Shown: in pieces, positions 5,301 through 51,629 of the stretch
How positions within the stretch are numbered: position 1 is the stretch's first letter
Layout: every line of letters begins with the position of its first letter
NCBI GenBank assembly: GCA_963796105.1
Contig: CAWCKJ010000003.1
Location: forward strand, 96,001 to 160,000
Reading direction: 5' to 3'
DNA from: a candidate division FCPU426 bacterium
Lineage (GTDB): Bacteria > Oederibacteriota > Muellerivitia > Muellerivitales > Muellerivitaceae
Length of the DNA: 64,000 bases
Notes under the pieces: model-generated
Told to the model about the DNA's origin: nothing
Databases searched by the model: none
The model's input: the letters and a program-made list of their open reading frames with translations, nothing else
Translations under genes and position numbers: made by a program

Positions 5301-6620
5301 GTGAATGGGAACACGGTTTGGACCAGTCCGTCCACGGGCGGCGGGGGGAATCGAAGCATCAATGTTGACGCTTCCGGTACGGTTTACGTGTGCGCGGATA
5401 ATGGTTCTATTTTCCTGATGGACAACTCAGGAACATTGCGGAATACCCTAACGGGCTATGGATTCAACGTGCCGACAGGCACCTTGAAAGTGGGCTCGAC
5501 GCTTTACGTGGATGACACATCCAACAACCGGATCGTGAGCCTGCCCCAGACTGGAGCTTATACCTATGGAACCGCGAGCGTGGTGGCGACCCTTACGAGC
5601 CCCTACGTTTTGACCTCGGACCTGGCGGGAAATTTCTACGCGGCTTGCAGCAATACCAATAGTTACAGCATCTACAACAGCGGGTGGGTTTTCCAGCAGG
5701 CCTGTACCAATAGCTCTCTCTTTTCAGGGGCTTTCGGGATCGCGGTGGATGAAACGGGCGCTATTTATGTGGCGGGACAAGGCTCAACATCCGTGGCGAA
5801 AATGCAGACTTGCATCAATCAACCGCCACAACCCACTTGCCCTCCGAGCGCGACCCCGACCGGCACCTTGAGCCCCTCTGTGACACCGACTCTCACGAAT
5901 ACCCCGACGTTGACCAATACGCCGTCTCCTTCGCCGACAAATACCTTCACTCAAACCCCGACATGGACCCCAAGCTTTACCGCGGCAAACACACCCACCA
6001 ATACACCAACACCGACTTATACCCCGACGTTTACGCTCTCCGGCACTCCTACGGATACCCCCACTATCACGAACAGCCCCACGCCCTGGCCGACGGGCGT
6101 TCCCACCTTTACCACCACTGATACTCCGGCGAATACCATGACGGGAACCTCAACATTTACGCCAACGATCACGCCGACGCCTTCTTATACGGACACTCCG
6201 TCGCCCACTGGAACTCCTACACCTTCGCCGACGGTCACGCCTACTTGGACGCCCACTGACATTCCGACTGACACTCCTGTCCCCACGAGCACATCTACCT
6301 CAACAGAGACGTCGTCACCCACGTCCACCTTCACGCCGACCCCCACTTGCGGGATCAGCCTGCTTTATCCCAATCCCGTTCGGGATGGCCATGGGGTTTC
6401 CTTCAATTACTCGTTTGATCGGCAGGAGCCTTTGGATGTGAAGGTCTTCACAGTGGCCTTCAGGAAGGTGTTTGACTCAAGCCAATTCGTCAAGGGGGCG
6501 GGAACCATCTCCTGGAACCTGACTGATAATGGGGGCAAACACCTGGCCAACGGTCTGTATTATGTCGTGATTCAAACGGATCAAGAACGATTCATACGAA
6601 AACTGCTTATCGTCCGCTGA
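2379..6620 (+). CDS. Large secreted NHL-repeat beta-propeller protein with Thr/Pro-rich linkers and T9SS-type-A-like C-terminal domain
   Basis: Signal peptide; repeated ADxVLGQ and VDSQGNLxVxDxxNNRVLR units; (TPT)n tracts at ~4900-5030 and ~5820-6350; C-terminus YPNP...FTVAFRKV...LANGLYY...RKLLIVR. Confidence 0.8.
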
Positions 6621-6669
6621 AGGCTTTTTTCCTACGGTTAATGAATACATTGTCCGAAAAACCTGGTAA

Positions 6670-6678
6670 TGCTAAAAT
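6670..6678 (+). promoter_or_regulatory. Putative extended -10 promoter element
   Basis: TGCTAAAAT (TGn + TAAAAT), separated by 6 nt from ATG 6685. Confidence 0.35.
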
Positions 6679-6684
6679 TCAACC

Positions 6685-7881
6685 ATGTTTTCGCGACTTC
6701 ATTTATCCATCGCCTTCGCGGTATTAATGGCGTGCTTCGGGGTTTCGGCCCCGGCTGGCGCGCAATATAGCGGTTCCCAGTTCAGCCTCAGCCTGGACGG
6801 GATGTTCCAGTGCGTGGTTCCTCCCTCACCCTATTCCGCGAACGGCCAGACTTACGGCATCGGCGCCGGCGGCAATGCCTTTTTCGACTGGCGCCCCTTT
6901 CAATTCATCTCCATCGGAATCGGCGGCCAATATACCTATTTCACCGGTAACAGCCCCTTCAAGTTCAGCAATGCCAATGTCGGGGGGCGTCTTTTCCCGT
7001 TCGGCACGAGCCCCGCCGGTGAGTTTTACCTTCAGGGCGGGTATGGGAAAAACCTGTTGACCCAGTCCCTGGACGGAGTGTTCCCGGGGGATTATCACGG
7101 TTACGGCTGTATTGGATATAGGTCCTTTATTTCTCCCAGCGCCGCCATGGACCTAGGTCTGCAATACGACTATGACCCTCCCTATACCGCCCCTCTCCAG
7201 GCGGCCAGTTTCAAGGTGGGATTGACCTTTCTTTTTGGAAGGACGGATTGGCGCTCGGCTAAGCCTATCACCGCACTGAAACAAAACACCGTTGAGGATG
7301 ATCTCTGGAAAAAGTCCTCGACCTACGCCTGGCAGGCGGGGGACAACCTCAGGTCGGTCTCTCAAAAACTTTATGGGGACCCGGCTTTGTACCCCTTGAT
7401 CGTGGATGCCAACAAAACCGCGACGGCCCATCCGGACCAGATCAAACCCGGAACCCTGCTGACGATTTCCTCAAAACCTTCGGGTTCTGAGGATGTCACG
7501 GCTTTGCGGTCGAAATCCGAAAAGCAGGTGGATTACGTCAAACTGGCGAAGATCAGCGAACTTCCCATGATCCGCAGGCTGGCAAGATGGAACGGCGCCA
7601 GCACCTACAATTGGAAAAAAGGGGATACCCTCCAAAAGGTCGCCAAAAAACTTTACGGAAACGAGGACCTTTATCCATTGCTGGTGGACGCAAACCAGAA
7701 ACATTTGATCCTTCCGGCCAATCTGGTTCCGGGAACCCGGATCAAGGTGCCGAAACCGAATTCGGAGGAACTTGATAAAATCCAAGTGAAGGGTTGGTCG
7801 TTCGATCCCTATATTTTTTGGAGGAATGTCACCGCGAATCAAGCGGAACATATGCCGATCAAGCAACATTCCTTCCATTGA
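6685..7881 (+). CDS. Outer-membrane beta-barrel protein with two C-terminal LysM-like domains
   Basis: Signal peptide (APAGA|Q); Gly/aromatic alternating strands ending VGLTFLFG; two repeats of YxWxxGDxLxxVxxKLYGxxxLYPLxVDAN...PGTxxxI/V. Confidence 0.72.
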   Translation: MFSRLHLSIAFAVLMACFGVSAPAGAQYSGSQFSLSLDGMFQCVVPPSPYSANGQTYGIGAGGNAFFDWRPFQFISIGIGGQYTYFTGNSPFKFSNANVGGRLFPFGTSPAGEFYLQGGYGKNLLTQSLDGVFPGDYHGYGCIGYRSFISPSAAMDLGLQYDYDPPYTAPLQAASFKVGLTFLFGRTDWRSAKPITALKQNTVEDDLWKKSSTYAWQAGDNLRSVSQKLYGDPALYPLIVDANKTATAHPDQIKPGTLLTISSKPSGSEDVTALRSKSEKQVDYVKLAKISELPMIRRLARWNGASTYNWKKGDTLQKVAKKLYGNEDLYPLLVDANQKHLILPANLVPGTRIKVPKPNSEELDKIQVKGWSFDPYIFWRNVTANQAEHMPIKQHSFH

Positions 7882-8002
7882 TTTTTTTCCCATTTGAACC
7901 TTTTAAGACGACCCGCGAATGGTTTGGATTTAACCTGGGATTCGTAGAAATTTCTTGTTGCGGAAGCGTTGGAATTATCCCTGTTTCAAATAAGGATGAA
8001 GA

Positions 8003-8758
8003 ATGAGAACCAGCCTGTTCATTTTGCTATCCGCTTTTCTTTTGCCGCTCGGGGCCCTCGCGCAGGAGGAGCACGCGCCTGTTTTGGGGTTGAATCTCGA
8101 CCTGACGGGCCGGGGCGCCTACGCTGGTAATGGAGGGCCGTCCCTGGCGGGCGGGGCCGGATTGAAAGCCTTCGGCGATGTCAGACCGTTGGATTTTCTC
8201 TCGATTGGCACAGGATTTGATTTCGCCGAATATCCCGGTAATGGTTCCTGGCAGGTCCTGACTTGGAACCTGGGGGTAAGGATTTTCCCATTGTCCGGCA
8301 TGGAACAGAACAAGGGAACGGAGTGGTACCTGCAAGGGGAAGCAGGATTGAATTTAACTGGATCAACCTTGGAGAAACATTGGCCTGGTACAGGCCTGGT
8401 GGAGTTGGGGATGGGCTTCAGGTCCTTTGTTTTAGGGCCGGGCCAAGCCCTTGATTTTGGGGCCTTCTACGATTTTTACACTCCATTCGCCAATCCTTTG
8501 CAGGCAGTGGGTATCAAGGCTGGAATGACTTGGCTCTTCGGACAGGAAGCAGTCTCAACTCCAACTCCTACTGCCACACCAACTGCGGTAAAGACAACCT
8601 CCATAAAACCCACCCCGGCCTTGACCCCAAAAGCTGCGAAAAAACCCGTAAAAATTGATTATAAAAAACCCCGCCATCGGATTCATAAAGATGATCTGGG
8701 AGATGGCGAAGAGATCCCATTGCCTGCGGCCACTCCCTCCTCTTCGGATTCCCAATAA
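8003..8758 (+). CDS. Outer-membrane beta-barrel protein with Pro/Thr/Lys-rich tail; paralog of the barrel in 6685..7881
   Basis: Signal peptide (ALA|Q); shares AFxDxRPxxFxSIGxG, GxRxFP, ExYLQGxxGxNL and PLQAxxxKxGxTxLFG with the upstream gene. Confidence 0.68.
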   Translation: MRTSLFILLSAFLLPLGALAQEEHAPVLGLNLDLTGRGAYAGNGGPSLAGGAGLKAFGDVRPLDFLSIGTGFDFAEYPGNGSWQVLTWNLGVRIFPLSGMEQNKGTEWYLQGEAGLNLTGSTLEKHWPGTGLVELGMGFRSFVLGPGQALDFGAFYDFYTPFANPLQAVGIKAGMTWLFGQEAVSTPTPTATPTAVKTTSIKPTPALTPKAAKKPVKIDYKKPRHRIHKDDLGDGEEIPLPAATPSSSDSQ

Positions 8759-17392: not shown

Positions 17393-17481
17393 TTTTCCTC
17401 CAACGAGGTTCTTAAAAACCATTATGGCATATCATCCGGCTTTTGGGCTTTCAAGGGGAAAAAGCCGGAAGCGGGCATGGC

Positions 17482-17490
17482 TGTTATAAT
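17482..17490 (+). promoter_or_regulatory. Putative extended -10 promoter element
   Basis: TGTTATAAT just upstream of ATGs at 17494 and 17503. Confidence 0.45.
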
Positions 17491-17502
17491 GACATGCGGC
17501 TT

Positions 17503-21728: not shown

Positions 21729-23465
21729 GTGAGGAAAACCATGACGGATTCACCCATTCAAGAAATGACAATGGAAGAACTTTTAAGCTCCGAACAGCGG
21801 GTCGCCCGGGGCCAGGTAGTCACGGGCCAAATCGTGAAAATCGGGGCGGACGATATCGTGGTGGATATCGGCTACAAGACCGAGGGAATCATTCCAAGGG
21901 CCGAGTTCCTGGATATCGCCGGGGAGCTCACGGTCAAGGAGGGCGACAAGGTCGAGGTTTCTGTGGAGCGCATGTCGGATTCCAACGGGAAGATGCGCCT
22001 CTCCAAACGCAACGTGGACCGAAGCAGGGTCTGGCAGAACCTGGAGGAGACCAGCCATTCCGGGGGCGTGATCAAGGGCAGGGTGGTCAAGAAAGTAAAC
22101 GGCGGATGGCGCGTGGACATCGGTACGGTGGAAGCGTTCCTTCCGGCCAGCCAGGTTACCCTCCAAAAGGGGCCGGAGGAAGAGGACCACCTGGAGAAAA
22201 TCTACGAGTTCAAAATCATCAAGCTGGACCGGGCCCGCACCAACGTGGTGCTTTCCCGCAGGCCTGTCCTGGAAATGGCCAGGGACGAGAACCGGATCAA
22301 GAGAATCTCCGAGATCAGTCCCGGGGACATCCTTGAAGGCAAGGTGAAAAACCTGGTCAGCTACGGCGCTTTCGTTGAGTTGAGCGGGGTGGACGGCCTC
22401 CTGCATATCGCGGACCTGGACTGGGGAAGGGTCAACAAGGTCGAGGATTTCGTGAAGCCCAATACCACCATCAAGGTCATGGTGCTCCAGGTGGATAAGG
22501 AAAAAGGCAAAATTTCCTTGGGTATCAAGCAGATGACGCCTGATCCCTGGACCGACGCAGACAAGAAATACCGGGAAGGGCAGATCGTGGACGTGGAAGT
22601 GACCCACCTGGTGGATTACGGCGTTTTCCTGAAGACGGAGGACAACCTGGAAGGCTTCTGCCACATGACGGAGCTGACCTGGTCGAAGAAACCGAAAAAA
22701 CCCTCGGAGATCCTGAAGCAGGGGGAAAAGCGGCAGGCCCAGATCATCGAGATCGATTTCGAGAAGCGCAAGATCAACTTCAGCTTCAAACGCCTGGAAA
22801 AAAGCCCCTGGGAAAACGTCTCGGCCCATTATCCCATCGGCTCCAATGTCCAGGCCACCGTGACCAACACAGCCGAGTTCGGGGTTTTCCTGGAAATCGG
22901 GGAGGGCCTGGAGGGCCTCCTGCACCAATCCGACATCACCTGGGACAAGAGGGTCAAGAACCCCCAAAAGGAATACAAGGCCGGGCAGGTCCTCACGGTT
23001 AAAGTCCTGGCCATTGATACCGAGAAAAAGAGGATATCCCTGGGGTTGAGGCAGGTGGAGGGGGACCCTTGGGACAAGGTCGAGGAAAAATACCAGCCAG
23101 GCCAGGTGCTGACCGGGAAAATAGCCCGAGTCGTGGAGTTTGGGGCTTTTTTGGAGCTGGAAAAGAACATCGAGGGGCTGATCCACAAGACCGAGATATC
23201 CAACCCGCCTCCCAAAAAGACCGAGGACGCCTTAAAACCGGGGGACGAGGTGACCTTCAAAGTCGTCTCAGTCGATACAGGAAAGCGGCGGATCGGATTG
23301 AGCATCAAGGCCTTGGCGAAAGCGGCCGGTCAAAAGGATGCTAAGGAAGGCGAGGCGCCGAGCGAGGAGCATGTGATTCACCACAAGACCAACGCCTTCC
23401 AGAAGATGCTCAAAAAATTCCTCAAGAAGGTCAAGACTGAGGAAGACGATGACGACGATTATTGA
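21729..23465 (+). CDS. rpsA: 30S ribosomal protein S1
   Basis: Six S1 domains (DIGYKTEG, AFLPASQ, YGAFVEL..VDGLLH, FGVFLE...EGLLH, FGAFLE...EGLIH). Confidence 0.97.
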   Translation: MRKTMTDSPIQEMTMEELLSSEQRVARGQVVTGQIVKIGADDIVVDIGYKTEGIIPRAEFLDIAGELTVKEGDKVEVSVERMSDSNGKMRLSKRNVDRSRVWQNLEETSHSGGVIKGRVVKKVNGGWRVDIGTVEAFLPASQVTLQKGPEEEDHLEKIYEFKIIKLDRARTNVVLSRRPVLEMARDENRIKRISEISPGDILEGKVKNLVSYGAFVELSGVDGLLHIADLDWGRVNKVEDFVKPNTTIKVMVLQVDKEKGKISLGIKQMTPDPWTDADKKYREGQIVDVEVTHLVDYGVFLKTEDNLEGFCHMTELTWSKKPKKPSEILKQGEKRQAQIIEIDFEKRKINFSFKRLEKSPWENVSAHYPIGSNVQATVTNTAEFGVFLEIGEGLEGLLHQSDITWDKRVKNPQKEYKAGQVLTVKVLAIDTEKKRISLGLRQVEGDPWDKVEEKYQPGQVLTGKIARVVEFGAFLELEKNIEGLIHKTEISNPPPKKTEDALKPGDEVTFKVVSVDTGKRRIGLSIKALAKAAGQKDAKEGEAPSEEHVIHHKTNAFQKMLKKFLKKVKTEEDDDDDY

Positions 23466-23623
23466 ATTGGACGCTTGTTAAAAGCCGGCCGGCGCGGGTA
23501 ACCAGGATGCTTGGTTCGCGAGTGAAAGATCGTTTCGGAGGCTCGTTCTCCGCGCGTCGGCTTGGGCCGGATGGTTTGACGATGACGGTAGCAGAAATTC
23601 CCGCGAAAAGTACCCACCGTTCC

Positions 23624-26600
23624 ATGAAAATGAACAATAGAAAGACTAACGTTGAAAAAAAACGGGCCGCGATACCGCGCGGGATTTTTTTCTGCGGACT
23701 GCTTCTTCCGATTTTAATCCTTTCCATTCCCGTCATCCTCTCGGCGGCCGGCATCGAGGCTCCGAAGCCATTGGAGGAGGGGAGGGCTCTCCTGAAAGCC
23801 AGGGCCTACCACCTAGCCATGGAGCGGTTTCTCCTGGTGGAGGAAAAAAGCGAGAGTTCCCTGGAAAGGGCCATGGCCCTGAGATTCATCGGGGAAACCG
23901 AGTTCCGCGAGAAGGATTACGCGGCCGCTTACCAGGCCTACCAACAGTCCCTCCGCCTGAACCCCCTTTTTACGGGGGCCTTGGCCCTGGAGTTCAAATC
24001 CGCCGTCGCCTTGGTTTACCTCAAGAACTATCCCACGGCCGTCTCGAAGTTCCAGGAACTGGAAAAGAAGGCCTATGAGCCAAACTCCCTCTCCGACTTG
24101 TACTTTTGGGAGGCGGAATGCCATTTTCAGCTGGAGAAATACGACCTGGCGGGCGAGAAATACGGAAAGATCCTGAAGGACAATCCAGGCTATCAGTATC
24201 GGGACCTCGTGCGTTACCTCCAATCCTGGTGTTTCTTCCAGCAGGAGGATTACGACAAGGCCCTGGAAGGATTCCACCAGACCCTGGGCTCCACGGGCGA
24301 CAAGTCCCTCAAAAAACTGGCTTTGTTCCAGACCGGGGAAACCCAGTTCCGGATGGGCCGTTACTCGGACGCGGAGGGAACCTACCAGGAATTCCTGAAG
24401 AATTATCCCGATGACTTTCTAACCGTGGCGGCCCTTTACGGCCTGGGCTGGGTCTTCGGCAAGGAGGAGGACCATGAGCAAGCCGCCAAGAGTTTCGAGA
24501 AGGTCATTTCCGAATATCCCGACCACCCCCTGGCGCCCTGGGCCGCCGTAAGGGCGGGAACCGAGCAGAAGGCCCTGGGCCTTTTGGACAAGGCCCGGAA
24601 GGACTACAACTGGGGGCTGGATTCCTCCCCGGACCAATCACCGGCGGACCTGCTGGAATACGGCCTGGGATGGCTGGATTACGCGGACCAGAAATTCTCC
24701 GACGCCGGGAAACATTTTTCCGCGGTTGAGCATTTCCCCCAGGGAAGCGCCCTGAAGTGGGACGCGGCCTACCTGGAAGCGGGATGCCTTTACCAGGACG
24801 GCAAGTTCGACGAGGCCAGGGCGGATTACGGGAAGCTGAGGAGCCAGGCGCCCGCCAACCTCTCCGCAGACGCCGCCTATTGGGAAGGCTGGTGCGATTA
24901 CGCCAACGGCAAGTTCGACCTGGCTTTCGAGCAGTTCCGGCGTCTTTCCAAAACGGCACAAGGCGAGCTCCAGTCCCGGTCCCTCTGGGCGTCCGCGGAA
25001 ACGGCCTACCAGCTGCAGAAATACGATGAGGCCTCCAAGCTTTACGAGGCGGCCATGGAAAGCCATCCCTCGGCCACCATCACCCAGCAGTGCTATTCCG
25101 GCGTGGGTTGGAGCCTGTTCCAGGAGGAAAAATTCGAGGAAGCCCTGGCCCAATTCAAGAAAGCCGCACAGAAAAACCCCGATTCCCCCCTGGCGCTGGA
25201 GGCCCAGATCCGCTGCGGGGATTGTTATTACAATCTCCACGATTACGAGAAGGCACGGGAGTCCTACCAGAAGATCCTCGACGGGAAGGCCGGACCGCCC
25301 TACTCGCTCGACGCGGGGGAACAGCTGGGATGGTGCGATTACCGCCAGGAAAAATACCAGCAGGCCATCTATGACTGGGCCCTCCTCCTGAAAAAGAACG
25401 GCACCGAGGACCGACAGGCCCGCCTCACCTATTGGACCGCCTGGGCCTACTTCCGGGAAAAGAGGTTCCAGGACGCCCAGGAGGAATTCCAGAAAGTCGA
25501 GGCGGATTTTCCCAAGGACCCCCTCGCCCCCGAGGCCCATCTCCGGTCCGCCGACTGCCTTTTCAACCTCAAGAAGTTCAAGGAGGCTAAGGAAGCCTAC
25601 AAAAGCTTCCTCGCGGCTTATCCGGACCACTCGCTCCTTCCCGACGCGCTCTACGGACTGCAATGGTCCGCGGATAAGCTGGGCGAAAAGGGAGAGGTCA
25701 ACGCGGCCGCGGGGGAGTTCCTGGAAAAATTCCCCGCCAGCCGCTACGCCCCGGACGTTCAGTACCGCCTCGCGGACAGCCTGTTCCACGACCAGAAGTT
25801 CCCGCAGGCCGTCGAGGCCTTTAGGACACTCCTGAAAAAGTACCCGGACAGCACAGAGGCGCCCCGGGCCCTCTTCTGGCTGGGCGAGGCCCTCGTAAAG
25901 AACGACCAAAACGCGGAGGCTTTCCCGGTATTCCAGGAACTGCTGAAAAAGTACCCGGAGGACCCCCTGGCCCTGGAGGGGCAGTTCAGCCTGGGATCGC
26001 TGTATTTCGAGTCCAAGAACTACGCCAAGGCCCTGGAAACCTACACCCGTATTTTCCAGAACTACCCGGACCACCGCCTGGCCCCCCACTCCCTCTTCAA
26101 CAGCGCGGTCTGCGAGAACAAGATCGGGCACCCGGACAAGGCGCTCCAGGATTTCAAAATGCTCATGACGGACTATCCCCTGGATCCCCTGGCCCAGGAG
26201 GCCGGCATGAACGCCGGCATCCTGCTGGAGAACCTGGGCAAGCTGGACGAGGCCCTCAAGGCCTACGAGCTTTGCATGAAATCGCCCGACGAGAAACTCG
26301 CGGTGGAGGCGACCTACTACCACGCCGGGATTTTAAAGAAGCAGAAAAAATACGCCGACGCGGTGCAGGAATTCAACAAGATCACCCTGGATTACCGCAA
26401 GGAGAGCCAGTGGGTGCTGGTTTCCTTCGCCGCCATGGCGGAGTGCTATGAGCAATTGAAGGAGTATGACAAGGCCGCGTCCACCTACCGCCGAATCCTG
26501 AAATACACCAAGGTCAAGCAGTACACCACGGCAACCCTGAAACGCCTGAAGGCCCTGGAGCCTTTCTTGAAAAAGAAACCCAAGAAGGCCGTGAAACACC

Positions 26601-26632
26601 ATGCCGCGGCCCCGGCGGGGGATGCCCCATGA
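23624..26632 (+). CDS. Giant periplasmic TPR protein (BamD/CpoB-type repeats), ~1000 aa
   Basis: Basic N-terminus plus hydrophobic signal from ATG 23624; many repeats like YPDSTEAPRALFWLGE, YPDHPLAP, FPKDPLAPEA; stop overlaps next start (ATGA). Confidence 0.85.
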   Translation: MKMNNRKTNVEKKRAAIPRGIFFCGLLLPILILSIPVILSAAGIEAPKPLEEGRALLKARAYHLAMERFLLVEEKSESSLERAMALRFIGETEFREKDYAAAYQAYQQSLRLNPLFTGALALEFKSAVALVYLKNYPTAVSKFQELEKKAYEPNSLSDLYFWEAECHFQLEKYDLAGEKYGKILKDNPGYQYRDLVRYLQSWCFFQQEDYDKALEGFHQTLGSTGDKSLKKLALFQTGETQFRMGRYSDAEGTYQEFLKNYPDDFLTVAALYGLGWVFGKEEDHEQAAKSFEKVISEYPDHPLAPWAAVRAGTEQKALGLLDKARKDYNWGLDSSPDQSPADLLEYGLGWLDYADQKFSDAGKHFSAVEHFPQGSALKWDAAYLEAGCLYQDGKFDEARADYGKLRSQAPANLSADAAYWEGWCDYANGKFDLAFEQFRRLSKTAQGELQSRSLWASAETAYQLQKYDEASKLYEAAMESHPSATITQQCYSGVGWSLFQEEKFEEALAQFKKAAQKNPDSPLALEAQIRCGDCYYNLHDYEKARESYQKILDGKAGPPYSLDAGEQLGWCDYRQEKYQQAIYDWALLLKKNGTEDRQARLTYWTAWAYFREKRFQDAQEEFQKVEADFPKDPLAPEAHLRSADCLFNLKKFKEAKEAYKSFLAAYPDHSLLPDALYGLQWSADKLGEKGEVNAAAGEFLEKFPASRYAPDVQYRLADSLFHDQKFPQAVEAFRTLLKKYPDSTEAPRALFWLGEALVKNDQNAEAFPVFQELLKKYPEDPLALEGQFSLGSLYFESKNYAKALETYTRIFQNYPDHRLAPHSLFNSAVCENKIGHPDKALQDFKMLMTDYPLDPLAQEAGMNAGILLENLGKLDEALKAYELCMKSPDEKLAVEATYYHAGILKKQKKYADAVQEFNKITLDYRKESQWVLVSFAAMAECYEQLKEYDKAASTYRRILKYTKVKQYTTATLKRLKALEPFLKKKPKKAVKHHAAAPAGDAP

Positions 26633-28464
26633 ACCATTCCCGTTTTTTCCTCCTTGAGAGTCTCCTGACCCTCGGGCTTTTACTGGCAGTTCCGTCTTTT
26701 TTAACGGCGCAGAAAACGGACGCGGCCGCCGCCCCCGAGACGGAAACCATTCCCGCTGAACCGGCCTCCCTCTCACAGCCCGTGACGGCGCCGGCGGAGG
26801 GGATCCCGGGAAGCCAGGCCCCCGGCCCCGGACAAAAACCCTCCCAAGGGGAGGGGGAAAAAGCCCCTGCGCAAAGCCGCCCCACGGCGGTTCCCGAGTT
26901 CGCGCTGCCGGAGGTGGTGATTACGGGAGAGAACGAGCTGACCATCGGGGCGAACCGTTTGGACCGGAAAGAAAACGACGTGACACTGGGAACCAGGGAC
27001 TTGACCGGGTTCGAGCGGACTTTCAACGACCTTCCCGGCTTGAACAAGACCTTGACCGCCCTTTCCACCGAGGAGGCCGGCCCCTCCAAGAACACCGCGC
27101 TGGTCCTTCACTTGGGCGGAGGAATTCCTGACACTTACGGGGGATGGGGTCTTTTCGGCCAAGAATTCAAGGGACTGCAGTACCTGCTTTCGGGCTATTA
27201 CTCCAACTGGGGAGGCCAGTCCGCGGGAACGGGCCTCGACGGGGACCAGAAAGCCGGAGGGGAATTGGGATTCCAGATTTCCCCGAGGGGCTCTCCCGCG
27301 ATCAAATTGACCGCGGGATACGACAGGGTGGACGCGGAACTGCCTTATCAGAATTCCATCCGGGAACTGCATGAGGGCTGGAACTTCGGGGGAAGCCTGG
27401 ATTGGAGGCTCACCAGCCTGTTCATGGGCCAGGTGAAAATTACCTACCGGGACATATCCTTGAACTGCTTAGAACCTCGTCCACTTCCCCTTCTTCAACT
27501 CCAAACCAACAGCACCGGGGAGCTGGAAGGCGCTTTTAAGATGACAGCCGACGATATCGGCCCTTTCCTGAGCCGGTTTGTCCTGGACGCGGGGGGCCGC
27601 CACGCTTCCTCCGATTTCCCGACCGCCTGGGAGACCAGCTATGACTGGGGCTGGGCTGGTTTCCAGGCCGATTTCAAGGCGGGAGAAACCCTGGATCTCG
27701 TCGCGAAACTTCAGGCCCAGGGAGGCGGTGGATTGGACCTGCCGTTGAACCTATATCCGGTGGCGGACCTGAATTGGAGGGTCTTTGAGAGCAGCAAACT
27801 CGACCTCTACTGGAAAAGGGACCGCTACATCGACGGAATGAGCAATAATTTCCTGGGGACCGAGCACATCAGCCTATGGGGAGGTTTCCCTTCTCCCACG
27901 GAAATAACCGACGAGTGGGGCGGACGCCTGACCCAAAAGCTCAACGAGAGGTTCATCCTTTCATTGGCAGCCTCCACAGCCCTGATCAACGGATACCATG
28001 AGTGGTCGGATCTCAAACCTGGAAACCCGGATTACATCCAAACCTATTCCACGCTTAATCAGGTCCGGATTCAAAGGGCGGGGCTCGATATCCAATGGAA
28101 TTTCGCCAAGGATTACCAGGCCGCGGCTGCCTTTCAATGGACCGGATCCGAAAACACCGGGGGGGACGGGAAGAACCTGACGAACCTGCCGGCCGGCAAG
28201 GGGGTCCTCTCCATTTACCGCGGAAACGAGAAATTGGAGGCGAGGATGGAATTGGAACTTGCGTCCAGCCGCAACGCCTATGACACGGGGAGCGCGATCC
28301 TGCCGGCCTACGCGGCATTGAACCTGGACGCGGCCTACCATTGGACCAAGACCTTCTCCCTCTGGTTGAAAGGCGACAATTTAACGGGAACGGACTATGA
28401 GCTTCAGCCTGGATATTCCGAGCCCCAGTACCATCTCCGCGGAGGGGTGGAAATCATCTTCTGA
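26629..28464 (+). CDS. Outer-membrane beta-barrel, TonB-dependent-receptor-like
   Basis: Signal peptide; Pro-rich linker; TonB-box-like LPEVVITG; TBDR-like end LPAYAALNLDAAY...GDNLT..Y...GY...LRGGVEIIF with terminal Phe. Confidence 0.72.
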   Translation: MNHSRFFLLESLLTLGLLLAVPSFLTAQKTDAAAAPETETIPAEPASLSQPVTAPAEGIPGSQAPGPGQKPSQGEGEKAPAQSRPTAVPEFALPEVVITGENELTIGANRLDRKENDVTLGTRDLTGFERTFNDLPGLNKTLTALSTEEAGPSKNTALVLHLGGGIPDTYGGWGLFGQEFKGLQYLLSGYYSNWGGQSAGTGLDGDQKAGGELGFQISPRGSPAIKLTAGYDRVDAELPYQNSIRELHEGWNFGGSLDWRLTSLFMGQVKITYRDISLNCLEPRPLPLLQLQTNSTGELEGAFKMTADDIGPFLSRFVLDAGGRHASSDFPTAWETSYDWGWAGFQADFKAGETLDLVAKLQAQGGGGLDLPLNLYPVADLNWRVFESSKLDLYWKRDRYIDGMSNNFLGTEHISLWGGFPSPTEITDEWGGRLTQKLNERFILSLAASTALINGYHEWSDLKPGNPDYIQTYSTLNQVRIQRAGLDIQWNFAKDYQAAAAFQWTGSENTGGDGKNLTNLPAGKGVLSIYRGNEKLEARMELELASSRNAYDTGSAILPAYAALNLDAAYHWTKTFSLWLKGDNLTGTDYELQPGYSEPQYHLRGGVEIIF

Positions 28465-28878: not shown

Positions 28879-29126
28879 GCTCCGCCTCTTTCCCCAACCC
28901 TCACCCCAATGATTCTAGACCTTTGCGGGGAAATTAGCAGAAGAAAGAGAAAATAAATATGCGTGTCGGGCGGGCCAATAGGCCGGGTTTTCCCGATTTG
29001 AGCCGGAGGGATCCAACCCGGTCCAGGGTACGGAGGGGTCAGGTTTACCCTGGAGCGTTATGCGGTGGTTGTGCTACCCTTGACGGGTTGGTATAGGCCT
29101 TTCGTTTTAATTTCCGGGAGGGTTCA

Positions 29127-29741
29127 ATGGCGCAAGATTTTTCTCTTTTCGAGGTGATCTCAAAGGGCGGGTGGACCATCGGCTTTTTGTTCCTCATGTC
29201 GATCGTGGTGTTCGCCGTTCTTTTCGAGAGGCTGAGCTTTTACCGCAAAAACCTGAGGGGGCGCGAGGAGGTCCTGGCGGGCCTGGAATCCTTCCTCAAC
29301 AAGGGCAACCTTCACGAGAGCCTCGAAGCCTGCGACCGGGACGGGACATTCCTGGCCAAGGTGGTCCAGGCGGGATTGAGGGCGAAACTGGAGAAGACAG
29401 GGCCCTCGGAATGCATGGAACGGGAGGCCAAGATACAGCTTTTAAGGCTGGAAAAACGCCTGCCCCTCCTGGCGACCATCGGAAGCACCGCCCCCTTCGT
29501 GGGATTGTTCGGGACCGTCCTGGGAATCATCAGGGCCTTCCGCGATTTGGCCGCCGCCAACAGCGGGGGAGCCGCGGTGGTGTCCCAAGGGATCGCCGAG
29601 GCCCTGGTGGCCACGGCCTCCGGACTCTTCGTGGCCATCACCGCCGTGTTCATCTATAACTGGTTCCAAAGCAAGATCAACGCCATGGCGCTGGAGGCGG
29701 AAATCGTGGTCTCGGAAATAGCCGAAAGGCTGGGGGCCTGA
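29127..29741 (+). CDS. MotA/TolQ/ExbB proton channel protein
   Basis: LATIGSTAPFVGLFGTVLGIIRAF...GIAEALVATASGL. Confidence 0.95.
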   Translation: MAQDFSLFEVISKGGWTIGFLFLMSIVVFAVLFERLSFYRKNLRGREEVLAGLESFLNKGNLHESLEACDRDGTFLAKVVQAGLRAKLEKTGPSECMEREAKIQLLRLEKRLPLLATIGSTAPFVGLFGTVLGIIRAFRDLAAANSGGAAVVSQGIAEALVATASGLFVAITAVFIYNWFQSKINAMALEAEIVVSEIAERLGA

Positions 29742-29744
29742 GAC

Positions 29745-30221
29745 ATGGAATCCCGCCTCAGGCCCAAGGCCAAGCTGATGTCCGAGATCAACATGGTGCC
29801 TTTCACCGACGTGGTTCTGGTTTTGCTGGTGATCTTCATGGTCACCACCCCTTTCCTGTTCCAAGGCGCCTTCCAGGTGAAGCTTCCCAAAGTGGCGGCG
29901 CCTTCCCCGAATCTGCCTGAAACCTTCACCATCACGATCGCCCAGGGGGACAAGGTTTACGTCAACGACAAGGAAACCAGCATGGACGACCTCCAGGGCA
30001 AGTTGAAGGATTTGATCGCCCGGAAACCCGGATCCCTGGTCATGATTAACGCCGACAAAAACGTGTCCCACGGGACGGTCATGGGCGTCATGTCGGAGGC
30101 TTACCAGGCTGGAATCACAAAGGTGGGGGTGGCTGTCGAGATCGCGAATAACCCGGGGGCGCCCGTTACCGCGGGTATTCCACCAGCCAATAGGGCCCAA
30201 GCCCCCGTATCCGTGAAGTAA
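29745..30221 (+). CDS. ExbD/TolR family protein
   Basis: EINMVPFTDVVLVLLVIFMVT with conserved TM Asp; INAD motif. Confidence 0.95.
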   Translation: MESRLRPKAKLMSEINMVPFTDVVLVLLVIFMVTTPFLFQGAFQVKLPKVAAPSPNLPETFTITIAQGDKVYVNDKETSMDDLQGKLKDLIARKPGSLVMINADKNVSHGTVMGVMSEAYQAGITKVGVAVEIANNPGAPVTAGIPPANRAQAPVSVK

Positions 30222-30270
30222 CAGCTGTTCAATCAGCCGGGAACCGGCTTGATTTCATGAGGAATGACAG

Positions 30271-31047
30271 ATGGACCGTGAGTTTCAAAAATCCATTTTT
30301 TACTCGGCCCTGTTCCACGCGCTTCTCTTCCTGATTTTTTTCCTGTTGTACCGTTCCTTCATCCTGGTGCGCACGCCCCTGCTGATGGACCTGACCCTGA
30401 TCGGGGAAATGTCGCAAGGCCAGGGCATGGGATCGCCGGCGCCCCACGCGGGAGCGGAACCAGGCCAAATGCCGCCGGCCCAAACCGCCGGTGAATTCTC
30501 GACCCCCCGGAAGGAAGCGGCGAAACCCCCGGTCCCGAATCACGAAAAACCCGAAGCCGCGGTTAAAAAGCCCTCGAAACCCAAGCTTCATTCCGGGAAC
30601 GCCAGCTCCGAATCCTACCTTGAAAGTTTGGAAAAGAAAGCCCCCATCGGGTTCAACATCAAAAAAGACGTCACTGGCGATATCAAGACCACCGCCGGTT
30701 TGGGCCAGGCAGGCGTGGCGGGGACTCCCGAAGGGAACCCCCAAATCGAGGGGGAACTGGCGGCCAGGAGCATCAAGCGCAGGGTGAATCCGGCCTACCC
30801 GGATTGGGCCAAAAAGCAGGGGATTGAGGCCACTGTGCGGTTCCATTTGACGGTGATGCCCAACGGTTTGTTGAAGGATGAACTGGATCTCGAGCAGACC
30901 TCGGGTTACCGCGAACTCGACCGAGTGGTGTACGAGGCCCTGATCCAATGGGAATTCGAGCCCCTGCCGCCGGAATTGCCCCAGGTGGACCAGTCCGGAA
31001 TCATCACCTTCACATTCAGCCTCAATAACGCCTCCTCCTTCCCATGA
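30271..31047 (+). CDS. TonB/TolA-family energy transducer
   Basis: N-terminal TM with SALFH (SHLS-type), Pro/Lys-rich linker, TonB_C domain PAYPDWAKKQGIEATV...SGYRELD...WEFEP. Confidence 0.9.
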   Translation: MDREFQKSIFYSALFHALLFLIFFLLYRSFILVRTPLLMDLTLIGEMSQGQGMGSPAPHAGAEPGQMPPAQTAGEFSTPRKEAAKPPVPNHEKPEAAVKKPSKPKLHSGNASSESYLESLEKKAPIGFNIKKDVTGDIKTTAGLGQAGVAGTPEGNPQIEGELAARSIKRRVNPAYPDWAKKQGIEATVRFHLTVMPNGLLKDELDLEQTSGYRELDRVVYEALIQWEFEPLPPELPQVDQSGIITFTFSLNNASSFP

Positions 31048-34239: not shown

Positions 34240-34716
34240 ATGAAATTATTAGCGGGACTCATCCTACTCTTCTCCTCCGCCCTCGCGGTTTACGGGAAAG
34301 ACAACACTGACCTGGCCGCCCAGAACCAAATGGGAAACCAGATCAACCTTCCCTCGATGATTACCAGCCCGACGGAAACGCCCACTCCGGTGGTTCATAG
34401 GACTCCCGTGGTCACGAAACCCGGAATCAGCGTCATTCCTAACCCCGCCCGAGGAAAAAAATTGTCTTTCCGGATCATGGCCCCTTCCCTGAGCAAGGCC
34501 TATATCCGCGTTTACGACCGCAATTTCGACCCCGTGACTGTTTTGGTGCAGGAAGGGGAGCAGCTTTTCGACGTGATGTGGAACCTCCAAAAGGTGCCGG
34601 AAGGCCCCTACTATTACCAGGCCCAGCTGGATGAGAAGCGCGGCGGCAAGGTCACCAAATTCCAGATGCAAAAATTCGCCGTGATCAAAGACGAGGATCC
34701 GGAGGAAAAACCATGA
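34240..34716 (+). CDS. Small secreted protein: Thr/Pro linker plus CTD-like Ig domain
   Basis: Signal peptide from ATG 34240; PTETPTP; PNPARG...IRVYD...WNL...GPYYY...KFAVIK. Confidence 0.65.
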   Translation: MKLLAGLILLFSSALAVYGKDNTDLAAQNQMGNQINLPSMITSPTETPTPVVHRTPVVTKPGISVIPNPARGKKLSFRIMAPSLSKAYIRVYDRNFDPVTVLVQEGEQLFDVMWNLQKVPEGPYYYQAQLDEKRGGKVTKFQMQKFAVIKDEDPEEKP

Positions 34717-45572: not shown

Positions 45573-45790
45573 TAATATAAAGGGAAAAAAGCTAGAGGCG
45601 GCTAAACCTCCAGAAGGGATTCAAAGTCAATTCGGCTTTTGGATAAGATGCGAGGGATTGATTATACTTTCACCATGGGGTGGGTAGGTCATCCCGTTGT
45701 TTGCCATTGACCCGAACTTTATTTGAATCCGGCGGTACGGCTTGTCCCACTCCGGCCTCGAATCGGAGATACTTTGAAAAGAAGGCTTTA

Positions 45791-47701
45791 ATGCTTCGTG
45801 TAAAACTACTGCTGACTATTTTTACACTTATTGCCCTTGCCGCGTTAGGATTCGGCGCCATCCATGCCGAGGAAAATGGATCTCAAAAAAAATCCTACGC
45901 GAAGTCAGCGCCGGGCCATCCGAATTTCGCACCTGGGTTGGTGGTTTTGGAACTGAACAAGGGAGCGGATTTGATGGCGGCTCAACATGAAGTGGAATCC
46001 CTTGGCTACAAGGTCAAGCGCGCCTCCAAATGGAGCGGGACCCTGGTGGTTCAGGTTCAAGCCGGAGAGGAACTTCAATTTGTTGATTATTTCAAGAATC
46101 ATTTCCTTTTTAGGAGGGTCTTGCCGGACTATCTCGGCGTTCCGGATGTGACAAATTACGTACCGTTCTCCTACCCGAATGATCCCGCCTATTCGGCGAA
46201 TGCCAGCAGTTCTTCAGGTCAAAACGATTGGTATTTGAACCAAGTGGGAATAGACGAAGCATGGAACGATCCTGATCCCTGGATGTCCAATGCGTCCAAG
46301 GGTCGATCTAGCGCCGTCATTGCCATTGTTGATACCGGTATCAATCTCGTCCATGAGGATGTAACTTCTCATTTATGGAGGGATCCCGGTAGCGGGAATC
46401 TCGGCCACAACTTTGTTGATGCATCAACGAGCATTTCAGATGTGTCTGGGCACGGCACTTATGTCACGGGAGTGGCTTCTGCTAATACCGACAATGCCCT
46501 AGGAGGGGCCGGCTTTTGCGTCAACTGCACGGTGATGGTTTTAAGGGCCAGCTCGGACGAGACCGCAAGCGATTCAGTGCCGTTTGCCGACGCCATCAAT
46601 TACGCTGTGCAAAACAAAGTCATGGCCATTAATCTGAGCTGGTCTTTTCCGCCCGGCACATTTCAAACCTACTGCGCCGACGCTTGGAAGGCGGGAAGCC
46701 TTGTGGTGTCCAGCATGGGAAATTCGGGCGACAACACCCAATACAGTCCCGCTGGGGACACGAACGCGTTGGGGATCGGCGCTACCGAGCCCGCCGGGAA
46801 CCTGTCTCCCTATTCTTCATTTGGGGCCTGGGTCGGAATGTGCGCGCCGGTAGGCCAAATCGCCAATGGGGACGGGGTGTTTACGGATGGGGTCACCTGC
46901 GGTTCAAACCCATGCGGGGATCCTTGCACAAGTTGTTATGTGGTCGCGGACGGAACGAGTTTTGCCGCTGCGCAAGTCAGCGCCATGGTCGCCATCCTGG
47001 CGGATTTGGGTCTGTCCAACGACGACATCGTTAACCGCCTCTATAAGACAGCTGAACATCTGGGCGCTTCCTATCCCAATACCCTGACCGGCTGGGGAAA
47101 TTTGAACGCCTACCGCTGCTTGGCTTCTTGCAGGCCGCCATCGTCCCTGACCGCTGTGGTTTCCTCAACCGGGGTGAGTCTTGCGTGGAATCCCCCCAGG
47201 ACCATCGCTTTCGCGACCAGCGAATATATTATTCTGCGTTCAACTGTCCCGGGAGGGCCTTACATTCAAGTGGGTCAAACGTCCAATGGGAACACCACTT
47301 CCTTCATCGACCTGAGCGCGATGACAGGGAAGAGTTATTATTACGTTGTCAAAGCCGTGGATAGCCAGCAATTGCAGACTCTTCCCTCGAATGATGTGTT
47401 ACTCATCGACGACGGGCCGTCTTATCCATTCTGCCCGGTTCTTTTTCCCAACCCACTCAAAGAAGCCTCTCCCTCGTGGATTTATCTGTCGGGCAAGAGT
47501 TCTGGGTCCATTCAGGTTCAAATATACACAACTGCATTTCGAAAAGTGAACGAGGTTTCTCTTTCAATCGGGGAGTCGGGTAACTACGGGCCATTAGAGC
47601 CGAAGGATTGGTGGAACAAACCATTGGCTAATGGTCTTTATTATCTGCTTATTACAGGAGAGGGAAAACATTCGCTCCGGAAATGGCTTATCATTAAATA
47701 A
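45791..47701 (+). CDS. Secreted S8 subtilase with FN3 domain and T9SS-type-A-like C-terminal domain
   Basis: Signal peptide from ATG 45791; triad IVDTG / GHGT / GTSFA; FN3 (LAWNPP...YYYVVKAVD); CTD FPNP...YTTAFRKV...LANGLYY...RKWLIIK. Confidence 0.88.
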   Translation: MLRVKLLLTIFTLIALAALGFGAIHAEENGSQKKSYAKSAPGHPNFAPGLVVLELNKGADLMAAQHEVESLGYKVKRASKWSGTLVVQVQAGEELQFVDYFKNHFLFRRVLPDYLGVPDVTNYVPFSYPNDPAYSANASSSSGQNDWYLNQVGIDEAWNDPDPWMSNASKGRSSAVIAIVDTGINLVHEDVTSHLWRDPGSGNLGHNFVDASTSISDVSGHGTYVTGVASANTDNALGGAGFCVNCTVMVLRASSDETASDSVPFADAINYAVQNKVMAINLSWSFPPGTFQTYCADAWKAGSLVVSSMGNSGDNTQYSPAGDTNALGIGATEPAGNLSPYSSFGAWVGMCAPVGQIANGDGVFTDGVTCGSNPCGDPCTSCYVVADGTSFAAAQVSAMVAILADLGLSNDDIVNRLYKTAEHLGASYPNTLTGWGNLNAYRCLASCRPPSSLTAVVSSTGVSLAWNPPRTIAFATSEYIILRSTVPGGPYIQVGQTSNGNTTSFIDLSAMTGKSYYYVVKAVDSQQLQTLPSNDVLLIDDGPSYPFCPVLFPNPLKEASPSWIYLSGKSSGSIQVQIYTTAFRKVNEVSLSIGESGNYGPLEPKDWWNKPLANGLYYLLITGEGKHSLRKWLIIK

Positions 47702-49670: not shown

Positions 49671-49755
49671 AATCGGAAATATTCCGGGAGTTAAATGAAT
49701 TTTTCTCATTATTTTTCGATTAAAATAACATCTTCTCCATTTAGTCGGAAAGGAA

Positions 49756-50697
49756 ATGATTATTTATCTGGGAAGCCAAAAAATGTCGAAACCCCTCTCG
49801 GGATTCGGCGGTTATATTCAACTCTTGACCCGCGCTGTTGGTTTGGCCTTAAGGCATTCTGCCGGCCGGCCCCGGGCCTATAAGAGGCTGATCGCGAGCT
49901 CGCTCGCGTTCAAATCGGTGCTCGCCCTAGTGCCAGTTCTCGCCATCCTCATGGCGGTTCTCGCGGGAGAGGCCTTCACCGAAAAACGAGAGGCTATCCT
50001 CGACCGGATCGTGGATGTGATTTATCCCGTCGATAACCTCGATAACGACAAGACCTTGGACCCGTCGGAAAAGCAAAACCTAAGGGAAATGAACCAGGTG
50101 GGGAAGAGGCAGATTCGACGCTCTATCAAGAAATTTGCTGAACATTCGAAAAAGGTCGGCTGGACCGGTTTGTTGGCTTTCGCGGTGGTGGTGTTTCTTT
50201 TGCTGCGAGACGTTGAAACGTCCTTTAATTTTCTTTGGGGGGTGAGCCGTGGAAGACCTCTTCCTTCTCAGTTCGTAAGGCATACCCTATTGTTTCTGGT
50301 TGGTCCGTTGATGCTGATCTCCGTCATGACAATGAAAGATTGGTTCCATGGCTGGGGGATCGTCAAGCCCTTCTGGAATGGGTGGTTCCTTTCTGTCGGA
50401 GTGCCATTCGTCTTTCTCTGGGCAGGATGCGCGGCCATGTACGCCTGGATTCCCAACGCCAAGGTCGGCCGAAAAGCGGCATTGTCCGCGGGGTTCCTAG
50501 CGGCTTTTCTCCTGGAGGTCGGACGGCGGGGGATGAACTATTACACGGTTCATGTGATGGATCATTCGAAGGCCTACGGGGCCCTTTGGACTTTTCCGGT
50601 CATTCTCCTATGGCTTTATGTTTCCTGGACACTGATTCTCTTCGGCGCCGAGGTGTCGTTTTACCTCCAAAATCCACCCTCGCCTGGGAATCATTAA
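49756..50697 (+). CDS. YihY/BrkB-family membrane protein
   Basis: ASSLAF...LVP, ETSFNFLW, IPNAKV, YGAL..FP..LLWLYVSW...LFGAE. Confidence 0.88.
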   Translation: MIIYLGSQKMSKPLSGFGGYIQLLTRAVGLALRHSAGRPRAYKRLIASSLAFKSVLALVPVLAILMAVLAGEAFTEKREAILDRIVDVIYPVDNLDNDKTLDPSEKQNLREMNQVGKRQIRRSIKKFAEHSKKVGWTGLLAFAVVVFLLLRDVETSFNFLWGVSRGRPLPSQFVRHTLLFLVGPLMLISVMTMKDWFHGWGIVKPFWNGWFLSVGVPFVFLWAGCAAMYAWIPNAKVGRKAALSAGFLAAFLLEVGRRGMNYYTVHVMDHSKAYGALWTFPVILLWLYVSWTLILFGAEVSFYLQNPPSPGNH

Positions 50698-50729
50698 ATT
50701 GCAGGGTATCTATATTTCGGGGTAACCAT

Positions 50730-51629
50730 TTGCGGAAAATCACAATTTTTATCTTTTTTGCGGTGCTTTATGTACTTCAGTCTGCTGGGGCCGCCCAGGA
50801 GGAGGTACGATACCTTGTTTCATGCTCACTGAATGTATCAGCCGACAGTGTCTTAAATATTTACCTGAACAACCATCTTGTGGACCGGGTTTCCCATATG
50901 AGTGTTTTAACCGGACCTCAAACCATCATCAGCCGTCCCTCCAGCCTCTGCTTTTTCCAGCATGAGAATATCCTGGCGTTTGAACTGGCGGGCCCGGCTT
51001 TCCGACCGGCTCTGGCATATGAAACCTATGGGTTCGCCTATTCGATGGATTTGGTATTCTCTGACGGCAGCCGCAGGGTTCTCACCAGCAGTGAAAGGAA
51101 CCAGCATTTAAGTCTGTATCTCCAGGACAAATTGATAGGAAATCCCCGCGACTGGGAAACCCTTGAATTCAACGAATCTGGATGGCAGATTCCCTATACA
51201 TCCGCTTCCATTCCGGGGCTGCCTGAAGTATGGAACCAGCAATCTGGCATTCCTGCAGGTTATCTTTCGGCATCCAAGAAAGTTCCCTTGGGAGAGGGCG
51301 GTGGTGACCGCCAACTTTTTCGCAGGAAATTCCTGCTGGAAATGGCCCCGGCGCCGCAATGCGGGGAATCCAAAACCGCCGCTAATCTTTTTATTTCTTT
51401 CGAGGAAGGGCCTGGAATTTACAAGGTTGAGATCCTGGACATGGAGGGCAGGCACATCAAGACGCCTTTTCAAAAGAAAGTGGTCAGAAAAACAAACGCT
51501 TGGGTTCCCTGGGATGGAAAAAACGAGAAGGGGGAACCGGCTTCCTCTGGAACCTACCAAGCCGTTTACACCAAGGACGGATCCCCCTTGAGAACCACCG
51601 ATTTTACCATCGACATGACGAATCCCTGA
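50730..51629 (+). CDS. Secreted protein with putative jelly-roll/lectin-like domain and FlgD-Ig-like C-terminal domain
   Basis: TTG start gives signal peptide (LRKITIFIFFAVLYVLQSAGA); SADxxxxIYLN...ENILAF...DW...FNESGW; VEILDMEGRHIK...WDGKNEKGEPASSGTY. Confidence 0.6.
   Translation: MRKITIFIFFAVLYVLQSAGAAQEEVRYLVSCSLNVSADSVLNIYLNNHLVDRVSHMSVLTGPQTIISRPSSLCFFQHENILAFELAGPAFRPALAYETYGFAYSMDLVFSDGSRRVLTSSERNQHLSLYLQDKLIGNPRDWETLEFNESGWQIPYTSASIPGLPEVWNQQSGIPAGYLSASKKVPLGEGGGDRQLFRRKFLLEMAPAPQCGESKTAANLFISFEEGPGIYKVEILDMEGRHIKTPFQKKVVRKTNAWVPWDGKNEKGEPASSGTYQAVYTKDGSPLRTTDFTIDMTNP

Follow-up and report, generated by a model that had tools for sequence, protein, structure and literature searches.

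Shared tails of secreted proteins

Why should secreted proteins of unrelated kinds, encoded within one stretch of bacterial DNA, end in the same sequence? The question is raised by 64,000 nucleotides of contig CAWCKJ010000003.1 from a candidate division FCPU426 bacterium (assembly GCA_963796105.1, positions 96,001 to 160,000; this whole stretch is called the window hereafter), in which a preliminary description had compared the ends of four proteins with the C-terminal domains (CTDs) that mark the cargo of type IX secretion systems (T9SS). From the evidence presented below, these tails are probably the export tags of a reduced T9SS, which keeps the SprA pore and carriers of the PorV family and in which no Gld/Por motor, ring or PorU sortase was detectable.

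The first protein (2379..6620, + strand, 1413 amino acids) is a predicted secreted cargo with a signal peptide, NHL/beta-propeller domains, a long Thr/Pro stalk and a CTD of 90 amino acids (6348..6617, +), and it has a close paralogue at C4:1177376-1181614 (contig and positions). The second, a subtilase of family S8 (45791..47701, +; PF00082 E 1e-32), lies in an open reading frame (ORF) spanning 45680-47701 with a likely start at 45791; it has a signal peptide, the D, H and S catalytic motifs on inspection, an FN3-like stretch and a CTD (47426..47698, +). The NHL protein ends in LLYPNP...FTVAFRKV...KHLANGLYY...RKLLIVR and the subtilase in LFPNP...YTTAFRKV...KPLANGLYY...RKWLIIK, and every one of the [YF]PNP, TxAFRKV, KxLANGLYY and RK motifs reported earlier was found in its place. 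BLASTP of the two whole proteins aligned them significantly in one place only, over 93 columns at their ends (E 6e-10 at 31% identity), and the second-best alignment had an E value of 0.25; as far as sequence comparison tells, they are unrelated apart from the last ~90 residues. Among the 20,170 six-frame ORFs of the genome TxAFRK[VI] occurs 19 times, always within the last 120 residues and nowhere else.

Scores of the window tails with library models were borderline. The NHL tail reached 28.2 bits with PF18962 when searched alone (cut-off 27), 22.9 bits within the whole protein, and 21.3 bits with TIGR04183 (cut-off 23), and the subtilase tail reached 14.8 bits with PF18962. A profile built from the genome itself (4.98 Mb in 16 contigs, 96.8% complete) matched the subtilase tail at E 3e-20. 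This profile was iterated from 29 motif-bearing tails, and a domain was counted if it lay no more than 20 residues from the protein end. After convergence it detected 123 proteins with such a domain, including all four of the window, and none in reversed ORFs, whereas PF18962 detected 19 (16 above cut-off). The CTD proteins make up 9.1% of the genome. With regular expressions of our own making, 83 of the 123 were assigned to four motif classes, TxAFRKV (34, including the NHL protein and the subtilase), YNSAGE (19), PNIS (18) and VWAYPNP (12), and 40 were left unclassed. The preliminary description had proposed a lineage-specific CTD-dependent route, possibly a divergent or minimal T9SS; the reduced route is supported, but the CTD itself is of an ordinary type A-like kind and TxAFRKV marks only a part of the set. 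Stalks rich in Thr, Pro and Ser are present in 98 of the 123 CTD proteins, compared with 72 of 2586 other ORFs. Of the latter 72 proteins, e.g., that at C3:243155-246780, 45 have a lipobox-like cysteine, which points to a second, lipoprotein surface route.

A structural model of the NHL tail (input alignment of 44 tails; predicted local distance difference test, pLDDT, 95.7) is an all-beta domain, a seven-strand immunoglobulin (Ig)-like sandwich like those of solved CTDs, in agreement with the beta-sandwich fold that the earlier comparison presupposed. In a comparison with 48,161 solved chains, the PorU CTD ranked first (Z 11.7, root-mean-square deviation [rmsd] 2.2, 88 aligned), NucA second (Z 10.1) and mirolase third (Z 10.0), and the PorZ CTD reached Z 9.8; the top three in Foldseek were PorZ and PorU, and the CTD sequence profile found PorU first in the PDB (E 1e-10), NucA second and FlgD third. 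Because T9SS CTDs lead in the structure, Foldseek and sequence rankings, the tail is taken to be a type A-like CTD in the longer form known from PorU and PorZ, to which FlgD is closely related. As in the type A CTD (PF18962, TIGR04183; PorU 6ZA2, PorZ 5M11, NucA 8GLK, mirolase 8QB1), the domain is a terminal all-beta sandwich of ~90 residues with a PNP start, G-x-Y and a basic last strand, placed on proteins with unrelated passengers and with signal peptides (judged by eye or by a crude test). It differs in that the tails here are mostly under library cut-offs, have the longer form with a W-D-G/L-x-D insert, fall into local motif classes and usually follow Thr/Pro stalks.

The other two proteins of the window, which are not ordinary cargo, had also been described as having related ends, and both match the CTD profile. 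The protein at 34240..34716 (+), between fabD and der, has a signal peptide, a short Thr/Pro linker and a divergent CTD (profile E 5e-9) that extends 8 residues beyond the usual CTD end; it had no Pfam match at E<=0.05, and no passenger domain was found between the signal peptide or linker and the CTD. Orthologues (E<1e-16) are present in 24 of 31 genomes of the family, with fabD adjacent in 12 of 12 loci examined and der following in 11, and an orthologue occupies the same gene position in a second family. With its conserved orthologues, its fixed position between fabD and der and its lack of a passenger, it resembles a housekeeping component of the system or else a minimal substrate. The cargo status of the 299-amino-acid protein at 50730..51629 (+) is uncertain. 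Its last domain is FlgD-Ig/CTD-like (FlgD_ig 23.8 bits, cut-off 27; CTD profile E 1e-16), the PNP start and the basic last strand are both absent from it, and two paralogues share this atypical end, which from its sequence may be only a FlgD-type Ig domain. The signal peptides described for all four proteins were recognised by eye, supplemented by a crude hydrophobicity test rather than a predictor.

The pore and its carriers

The window itself was described as containing no por, spr or gld genes, and this was found to be the case. A 2017-amino-acid ORF at C3:212289-218342, 52 kb beyond the window end, was identified as SprA with TIGR04189 (207.6 bits, cut-off 200), so that the SprA/Sov translocon of the canonical T9SS is present. 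A single-sequence SprA scan through a collection of genome contigs gave no match, whereas an alignment-based one did; PF14349 gave no match to the ORF. A profile of 17 homologues matched Flavobacterium johnsoniae SprA (PDB 6H3I) at E 6e-47 over its N-terminal half. The C-terminal 1200 residues were modelled (pLDDT 79) as an extended series of strands, for which a fold search returned SprA chains first (E 6e-38 to 8e-32) and the next fold at 3e-6. A skp gene was seen 7 kb upstream on inspection. SprA has FN3-like N-terminal domains, and over 20 loci its length varied from 1697 to 2248 amino acids; lptFG was present in nine of the 20 neighbourhoods and a CTD protein was the next gene in 13. Here a 1618-amino-acid FN3-rich CTD protein (C3:218356-223212) lies directly behind sprA, and the recurrence of a CTD gene at this position suggests a partner of the translocon.

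SprA was found in 92 of 99 genomes of the phylum, which is labelled Goldbacteria/Firestonebacteria (58 of 60 good genomes), and CTDs in all 99, with 10 to at least 52 per genome, about 52 being the most that the scoring allows. Named records with this SprA (40 loci) bear the label Ca. Firestonebacteria, Ca. Goldiibacteriota or 'Spirochaetia', or are unclassified.

Carriers of the PorV family, likewise part of the canonical T9SS, are numerous. An iterated search detected 20 PorV-like barrels, many with FN3, TPR or OmpA-like extensions; 14 of them exceed the cut-off of NF033709 (PorV/PorQ family), and PF19572 gave 37 bits (cut-off 27). For ten of the 20, the gene immediately before on the same strand encodes a CTD protein; among 2586 control genes, 118 lie within 500 bp of a CTD gene (p 7e-9). 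The ten barrel-linked CTDs are all among the 40 unclassed and none among the 83 classed (p 6e-6). The main stand-alone PorV (C3:696897-697853, 318 amino acids) matched only PorV in the PDB (6H3I chain F, E 1e-24). Each of the 17 other good genomes of the order contains a single strong orthologue of it (E<1e-100), and 58 of 60 genomes of the phylum contain a match at E<=1e-20. It has neither a periplasmic tail nor a cysteine in the mature chain, and no twin-cysteine tails like those of SprF/PorG were evident in a cysteine listing of the barrels.

Complex modelling, which covered this barrel, gave a score of 0.76 for the main PorV with the NHL tail, compared with 0.00 for the best of three controls; contacts agreed at >=98% between runs and the pLDDT of the partner was 83. 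The mark used had been calibrated, being reached by 116 of 157 solved complexes and by two of 215 mismatched pairs. The modelled interface comprises tail residues 4-10, 34-41 (FTVAFRKV), 64-70 and 81-90, and the tag is thus predicted to bind the extracellular loops of the main PorV with the TxAFRKV motif in contact. Since PorV-CTD complexes have already been solved, passing the mark indicates likeness to them, not binding.

Several observations weigh against the reading of the tails as export tags. The 123 CTDs include a few fragments and at least three proteins resembling membrane-bound anti-sigma factors, which are not cargo, and the true cargo count is therefore somewhat lower. The crude signal-peptide test was passed by only 94 of the 123 CTD proteins and also by 1146 of 2642 control ORFs. 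All 20 barrels fell short of the cut-off for the PorV equivalog, the best of them with 75 of the required 250 bits, and the SprA model aligns to SprA chains at TM 0.47 and an rmsd of ~15 A, as half a barrel. Unrelated generic Ig domains reach Z 9.9 with the NHL tail model, and the CTD profile also matches FlgD at E 3e-7, with FlgD chains ranking third to fifth in the PDB search. The tails could be regarded as plain FlgD-type Ig domains, which anchor or stabilise periplasmic or surface proteins and carry no export signal. Similar domains occur in the anti-sigma-like proteins and in the periplasmic extensions of some barrels, 50730..51629 matches FlgD_ig only among the library models, and the PorV-like barrels also match UPF0164, a family found in Treponema, a genus that is not known to have a T9SS. 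However, the tails are strictly terminal on unrelated passengers, T9SS CTDs outrank FlgD by both sequence and fold, the SprA of the 92 genomes is full-length, CTD genes are coupled to PorV barrel genes, and the complex model favours the pairing of tail and carrier, so this alternative is highly improbable. An export role of the tags in this organism is likely, judged from sequences, models and analogy together.

At C4:1229567-1233603, C12:79965-84307 and C12:90566-93555, a membrane protein that resembles an anti-sigma factor and whose periplasmic end is CTD/FlgD-like is encoded together with a CTD cargo and a PorV-TPR barrel. An ORF for an extracytoplasmic function sigma factor was found at the first two (at the second split in two ORFs, C12:83748-84307) and is presumed at the third; the three loci possibly represent cell-surface signalling built from T9SS parts. 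Two PorV-like gene pairs (C3:423845-427589 and C3:401381-404943) are situated near the flagellar locus, and in the vicinity of one pair there is no CTD gene.

Missing components

GldK carries an FGE-sulfatase domain, which is easy to detect. Four FGE-sulfatase ORFs of this genome were considered and rejected as GldK by inspection (the GldK model was not searched), being ordinary ORFs of 271-517 amino acids at scattered loci with no K-L-M-N-like neighbours. Of the components for which a search had been advised, SprA and PorV are present, and GldL, GldM, GldN and PorU were not found: the genome gave no match to PF01364 (PorU), TIGR03517 (GldM), PF19841 (GldN), TIGR03513 (GldL) or PF11751 (PorP), and all 38 matches of the PorZ model cover only the CTD part. 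In the phylum, GldM (TIGR03517) was found in none of 99 genomes and GldN in none of 60; GldL was over the cut-off in none of 60, with one weak match (E 7e-4). Plug (PF17116) was found in none of 36 genomes, and no control genome matched either. C25 (PF01364) was detected in eight of the 99 genomes and in none of 32 in the own order, so this search is able to detect. The sprA neighbourhoods examined contain no motor-like operon. Because the GldL-GldM (PorLM) motor, the GldK-GldN (PorKN) ring and the set of PorU sortase with PorZ and PorQ were not found, the motor and GldN searches being without a positive control, the system is classed as a motor-less, sortase-less variant of the T9SS and not a canonical member.

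The absences have to be read with care. Six Bacteroidota plasmid records, meant as a positive control, gave no match to GldM; they may not hold gldM, and the GldM search is therefore without a positive control. A PorP-like query against the plasmids also gave no match. As no genome was found in which the GldM search matched, an absence here means 'not found with Bacteroidota-trained models'. That the GldM, GldN, Plug and PorP searches matched in no control genome is a further point against the motor-less reading and leaves room for a complete T9SS whose GldK/L/M/N chain has diverged past recognition by such models. The low scores of SprA, barely over its cut-off and without a PF14349 match, and of the PorV paralogues, far under the equivalog, do imply that divergence is large, and cargo of F. 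johnsoniae depends on the motor for its release from the pore (PMC10994853). On the other hand, the FGE-sulfatase proteins have no suitable neighbours, the phylum-wide counts for GldM, GldN and GldL are zero or nearly so, and no motor-like operon accompanies sprA. Moreover, the main PorV offers neither a periplasmic tail nor a cysteine, whereas the track of Bacteroidota grips its partners by disulfides (PMC12635249). A diverged motor is thus considered unlikely.

Proposed route of the cargo

By analogy with the Flavobacterium system, cargo of the reduced T9SS would cross the inner membrane by Sec and fold, and the folded cargo would then enter SprA from the periplasm, bind its carrier tag-first and exit through the lateral gate. 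Sec export, entry into SprA, binding of the CTD to carrier loops and sideways exit have been described for F. johnsoniae cargo (PMC10994853, PMC10202324). Sorting in two tiers is suggested by the fact that barrel-linked tags are all unclassed and classed tags are never linked. In the first, the 83 cargoes with classed tags, among them the NHL protein and the subtilase, have no linked barrel gene and would share a general carrier; in the second, ten cargoes with atypical tags, each encoded directly before its own barrel, would stay anchored on that barrel. Flavobacterium also has two tiers, of type A and type B cargo (PMC12618676), and in the known cognate pairs (type B CTD with PorP/SprF, PorZ with PorQ, PorU with PorV; PMC12618676, PMC10202324) the cargo gene likewise lies directly before its own barrel, with a general carrier for unlinked cargo, but the linked barrels here belong to the PorV/PorQ family and not to PorP/SprF, and the linked tags are type A-like. 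Since no PorU sortase was found, the tag would stay on the cargo, being neither cut nor exchanged for anionic lipopolysaccharide (A-LPS), and uncut cargo would be released whole or held by the contact of tag and barrel, like PorZ on PorQ.

A candidate energiser

For the energy with which carrier and cargo would leave the pore, the best candidate found is an operon of the window (23462-31047, +). Its first gene encodes a TPR protein of 1056 amino acids (23462..26632), which scored 152.6 bits with NF052312 (PorW/SprE), under the cut-off of 250 and under its score with the YbgF model. This is followed by an outer-membrane barrel of 611 amino acids (26629..28464) related to TonB-dependent transporters (profile matches to Cir, YncD and BtuB, E 1e-11 to 1e-7), an ExbB/TolQ proton channel (29127..29741; PF01618 E 1e-33), ExbD/TolR (29745..30221; PF02472 E 9e-30) and a TonB/TolA-like force transducer (30271..31047; PF03544 E 7e-12). 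The clusters of the Atlas nearest to the barrel are mostly of Rhodothermota and 'Spirochaetota', a label also borne by members of this phylum. One strong match to the TPR gene was found in 53 of the 60 good genomes of the phylum. In 20 of these 53 loci, picked to span 13 families, the TPR gene was always followed by the barrel, and all five genes were in order in 18; of the other two, one had no motor genes there and one lay at a contig end. The main PorV orthologue lies 80-140 bp upstream of the operon on the same strand in four of the 20 loci, from two families.

The organisation of GldLM resembles that of ExbBD and TolQR (PMC10202324), which makes the exchange of a Ton-type motor for GldLM plausible. 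The system could then be a pre-gliding T9SS, in which a Ton-type motor replaces GldLM, the operon pulls loaded PorV off SprA, and the sorting of ~120 uncut cargoes falls to 20 PorV paralogues, with no sortase; this is a tentative and rather doubtful proposal, and so is the phylum-wide TPR-barrel-ExbB-ExbD-TonB operon as an energiser, which is the new candidate put forward here. Against this role, the main PorV and the operon are ~570 kb apart in this genome, the two are adjacent in only one of 30 loci chosen by the main PorV, and the two families that show the linkage are related. TolB_N was found neither in this genome nor in 40 of the 44 genomes searched (both proteobacterial controls matched), so that the operon may instead stand in for Tol-Pal. 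No tolB or pal was found beside the operon in the 20 loci (Pal was not searched genome-wide), and in this respect it is not a Tol-Pal system. The three other ExbB/ExbD sets of the genome were set aside as energisers, as each adjoins a large receptor-like gene.

The chances are about even that there is no dedicated motor at all, that carriers dock at SprA when empty and diffuse off once loaded, and that the operon is a separate envelope machine, for example a substitute for Tol-Pal or an importer. The need for such a substitute, the resemblance of the operon barrel to TonB-dependent transporters and the rarity of the linkage with PorV all favour this, as do the many cognate anchors, on which each cargo may just stay. 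It is opposed by three of the four genomes with TolB_N (G006, G014 and G017), which retain the TPR-barrel genes as well, and by F. johnsoniae, in which removal of the motor traps cargo on the pore (PMC10994853). This alternative is restricted to the energy step, so the tails could be export tags of a reduced T9SS in this case as well.

In three genomes of one family (G012, G014 and G015), the TPR matches contain one or two in-frame TGA codons near the match end, which could reflect stop read-through or an alternative code.

Comparison with known systems

The T9SS of F. johnsoniae and Porphyromonas gingivalis (SprA/Sov, PorV, GldLM motor, GldKN ring, SprE, Plug, PorQUZ) shares with the present system SprA, PorV-family carriers, type A-like tags and a skp gene. 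It differs from it in GldL, GldM, GldN, PorU, PorZ, Plug and PorP, which were not found here, while SprA here is shorter with FN3-like N-terminal domains and the PorV-like barrels number 20. McBride and Zhu are said to have noted, in 2013, sprA without gldKLMN in Rhodothermus and Salinibacter. A motor-less SprA-PorV system is already in print for the Ignavibacteria: according to one sentence, which gives no cargo count, Ignavibacterium and Melioribacter possess SprA, PorV and Plug but lack all other T9SS proteins (PMC11705866). Those genera, which resemble the present case in having pore and carrier without a motor, are members of the Fibrobacteres-Chlorobi-Bacteroidetes (FCB) superphylum and have Plug, whereas here a whole phylum outside that list has no Plug match and 10 to more than 52 tags per genome.

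According to reviews, T9SS genes do not occur beyond the FCB superphylum (PMC11285876), and CTDs go along with the core T9SS components (PMC10202324). A genome of Bacteroidota affinity with a full canonical T9SS would have spoken against the preliminary description, and the phylum of this organism is not Bacteroidota. Goldiibacteriota are placed by NCBI among candidate phyla and not under FCB, and Goldbacteria were tied to the FCPU426 cluster (PMC7031533); by these labels the phylum lies outside FCB. No description of a T9SS in this phylum was found in the literature, a search from which most subscription papers were excluded, as were supplements, whose tables could list the phylum. No paper joining type IX secretion, PorV and Elusimicrobia was found, and the Goldbacteria paper (PMC7031533) does not mention T9SS.

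Nearly all genomes of the phylum have SprA, PorV and dozens of tags, one of them with 9% of its DNA encoding tagged proteins, and no motor or sortase was found. A 2025 paper inferred an origin of the T9SS within the gliding machinery (PMC12635249), and structural work identified release from SprA as the step that needs the GldLM motor (PMC10994853). The occurrence of pore, carrier and tags throughout a phylum without detected motor or sortase argues that these parts can function independently of gliding and may also have originated independently of it. Two questions become testable, the energy source of release and the retention of cargo without PorU, and a small SprA-PorV system would suit the heterologous display of large folded proteins.

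Other features

Directly behind the NHL cargo, 6685-8758 of the window encodes two proteins, one of 398 amino acids that is barrel-like in its N-terminal half and has two LysM domains, followed by one of 251 amino acids with a similar barrel-like region and a Thr/Pro tail; both are possible small outer-membrane anchors. An IS1380-family transposase (44021-45451) directly precedes the subtilase, and the same N-terminal sequence was found in ORFs at three or more other sites.

Four multi-pass proteins of the window (14522-16909, 17443-19560, 31044-33149 and 53057-54571) are of glycosyltransferase C (GT-C) type, two being YfhO and TMEM260-like by Pfam and the other two presumably of the same type. 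The GT-C-like proteins have 36 paralogues genome-wide and are candidates for glycosylating the Thr/Pro stalks. As a part of the system they were rejected, because their proximity to CTD genes (seven of 36 within 500 bp, compared with 42 of 565 controls, p 0.02) was too weak. Finally, the ORF at C12:89444-90409 consists of ~13 near-identical repeats of 23 residues and is probably a DNA repeat array.

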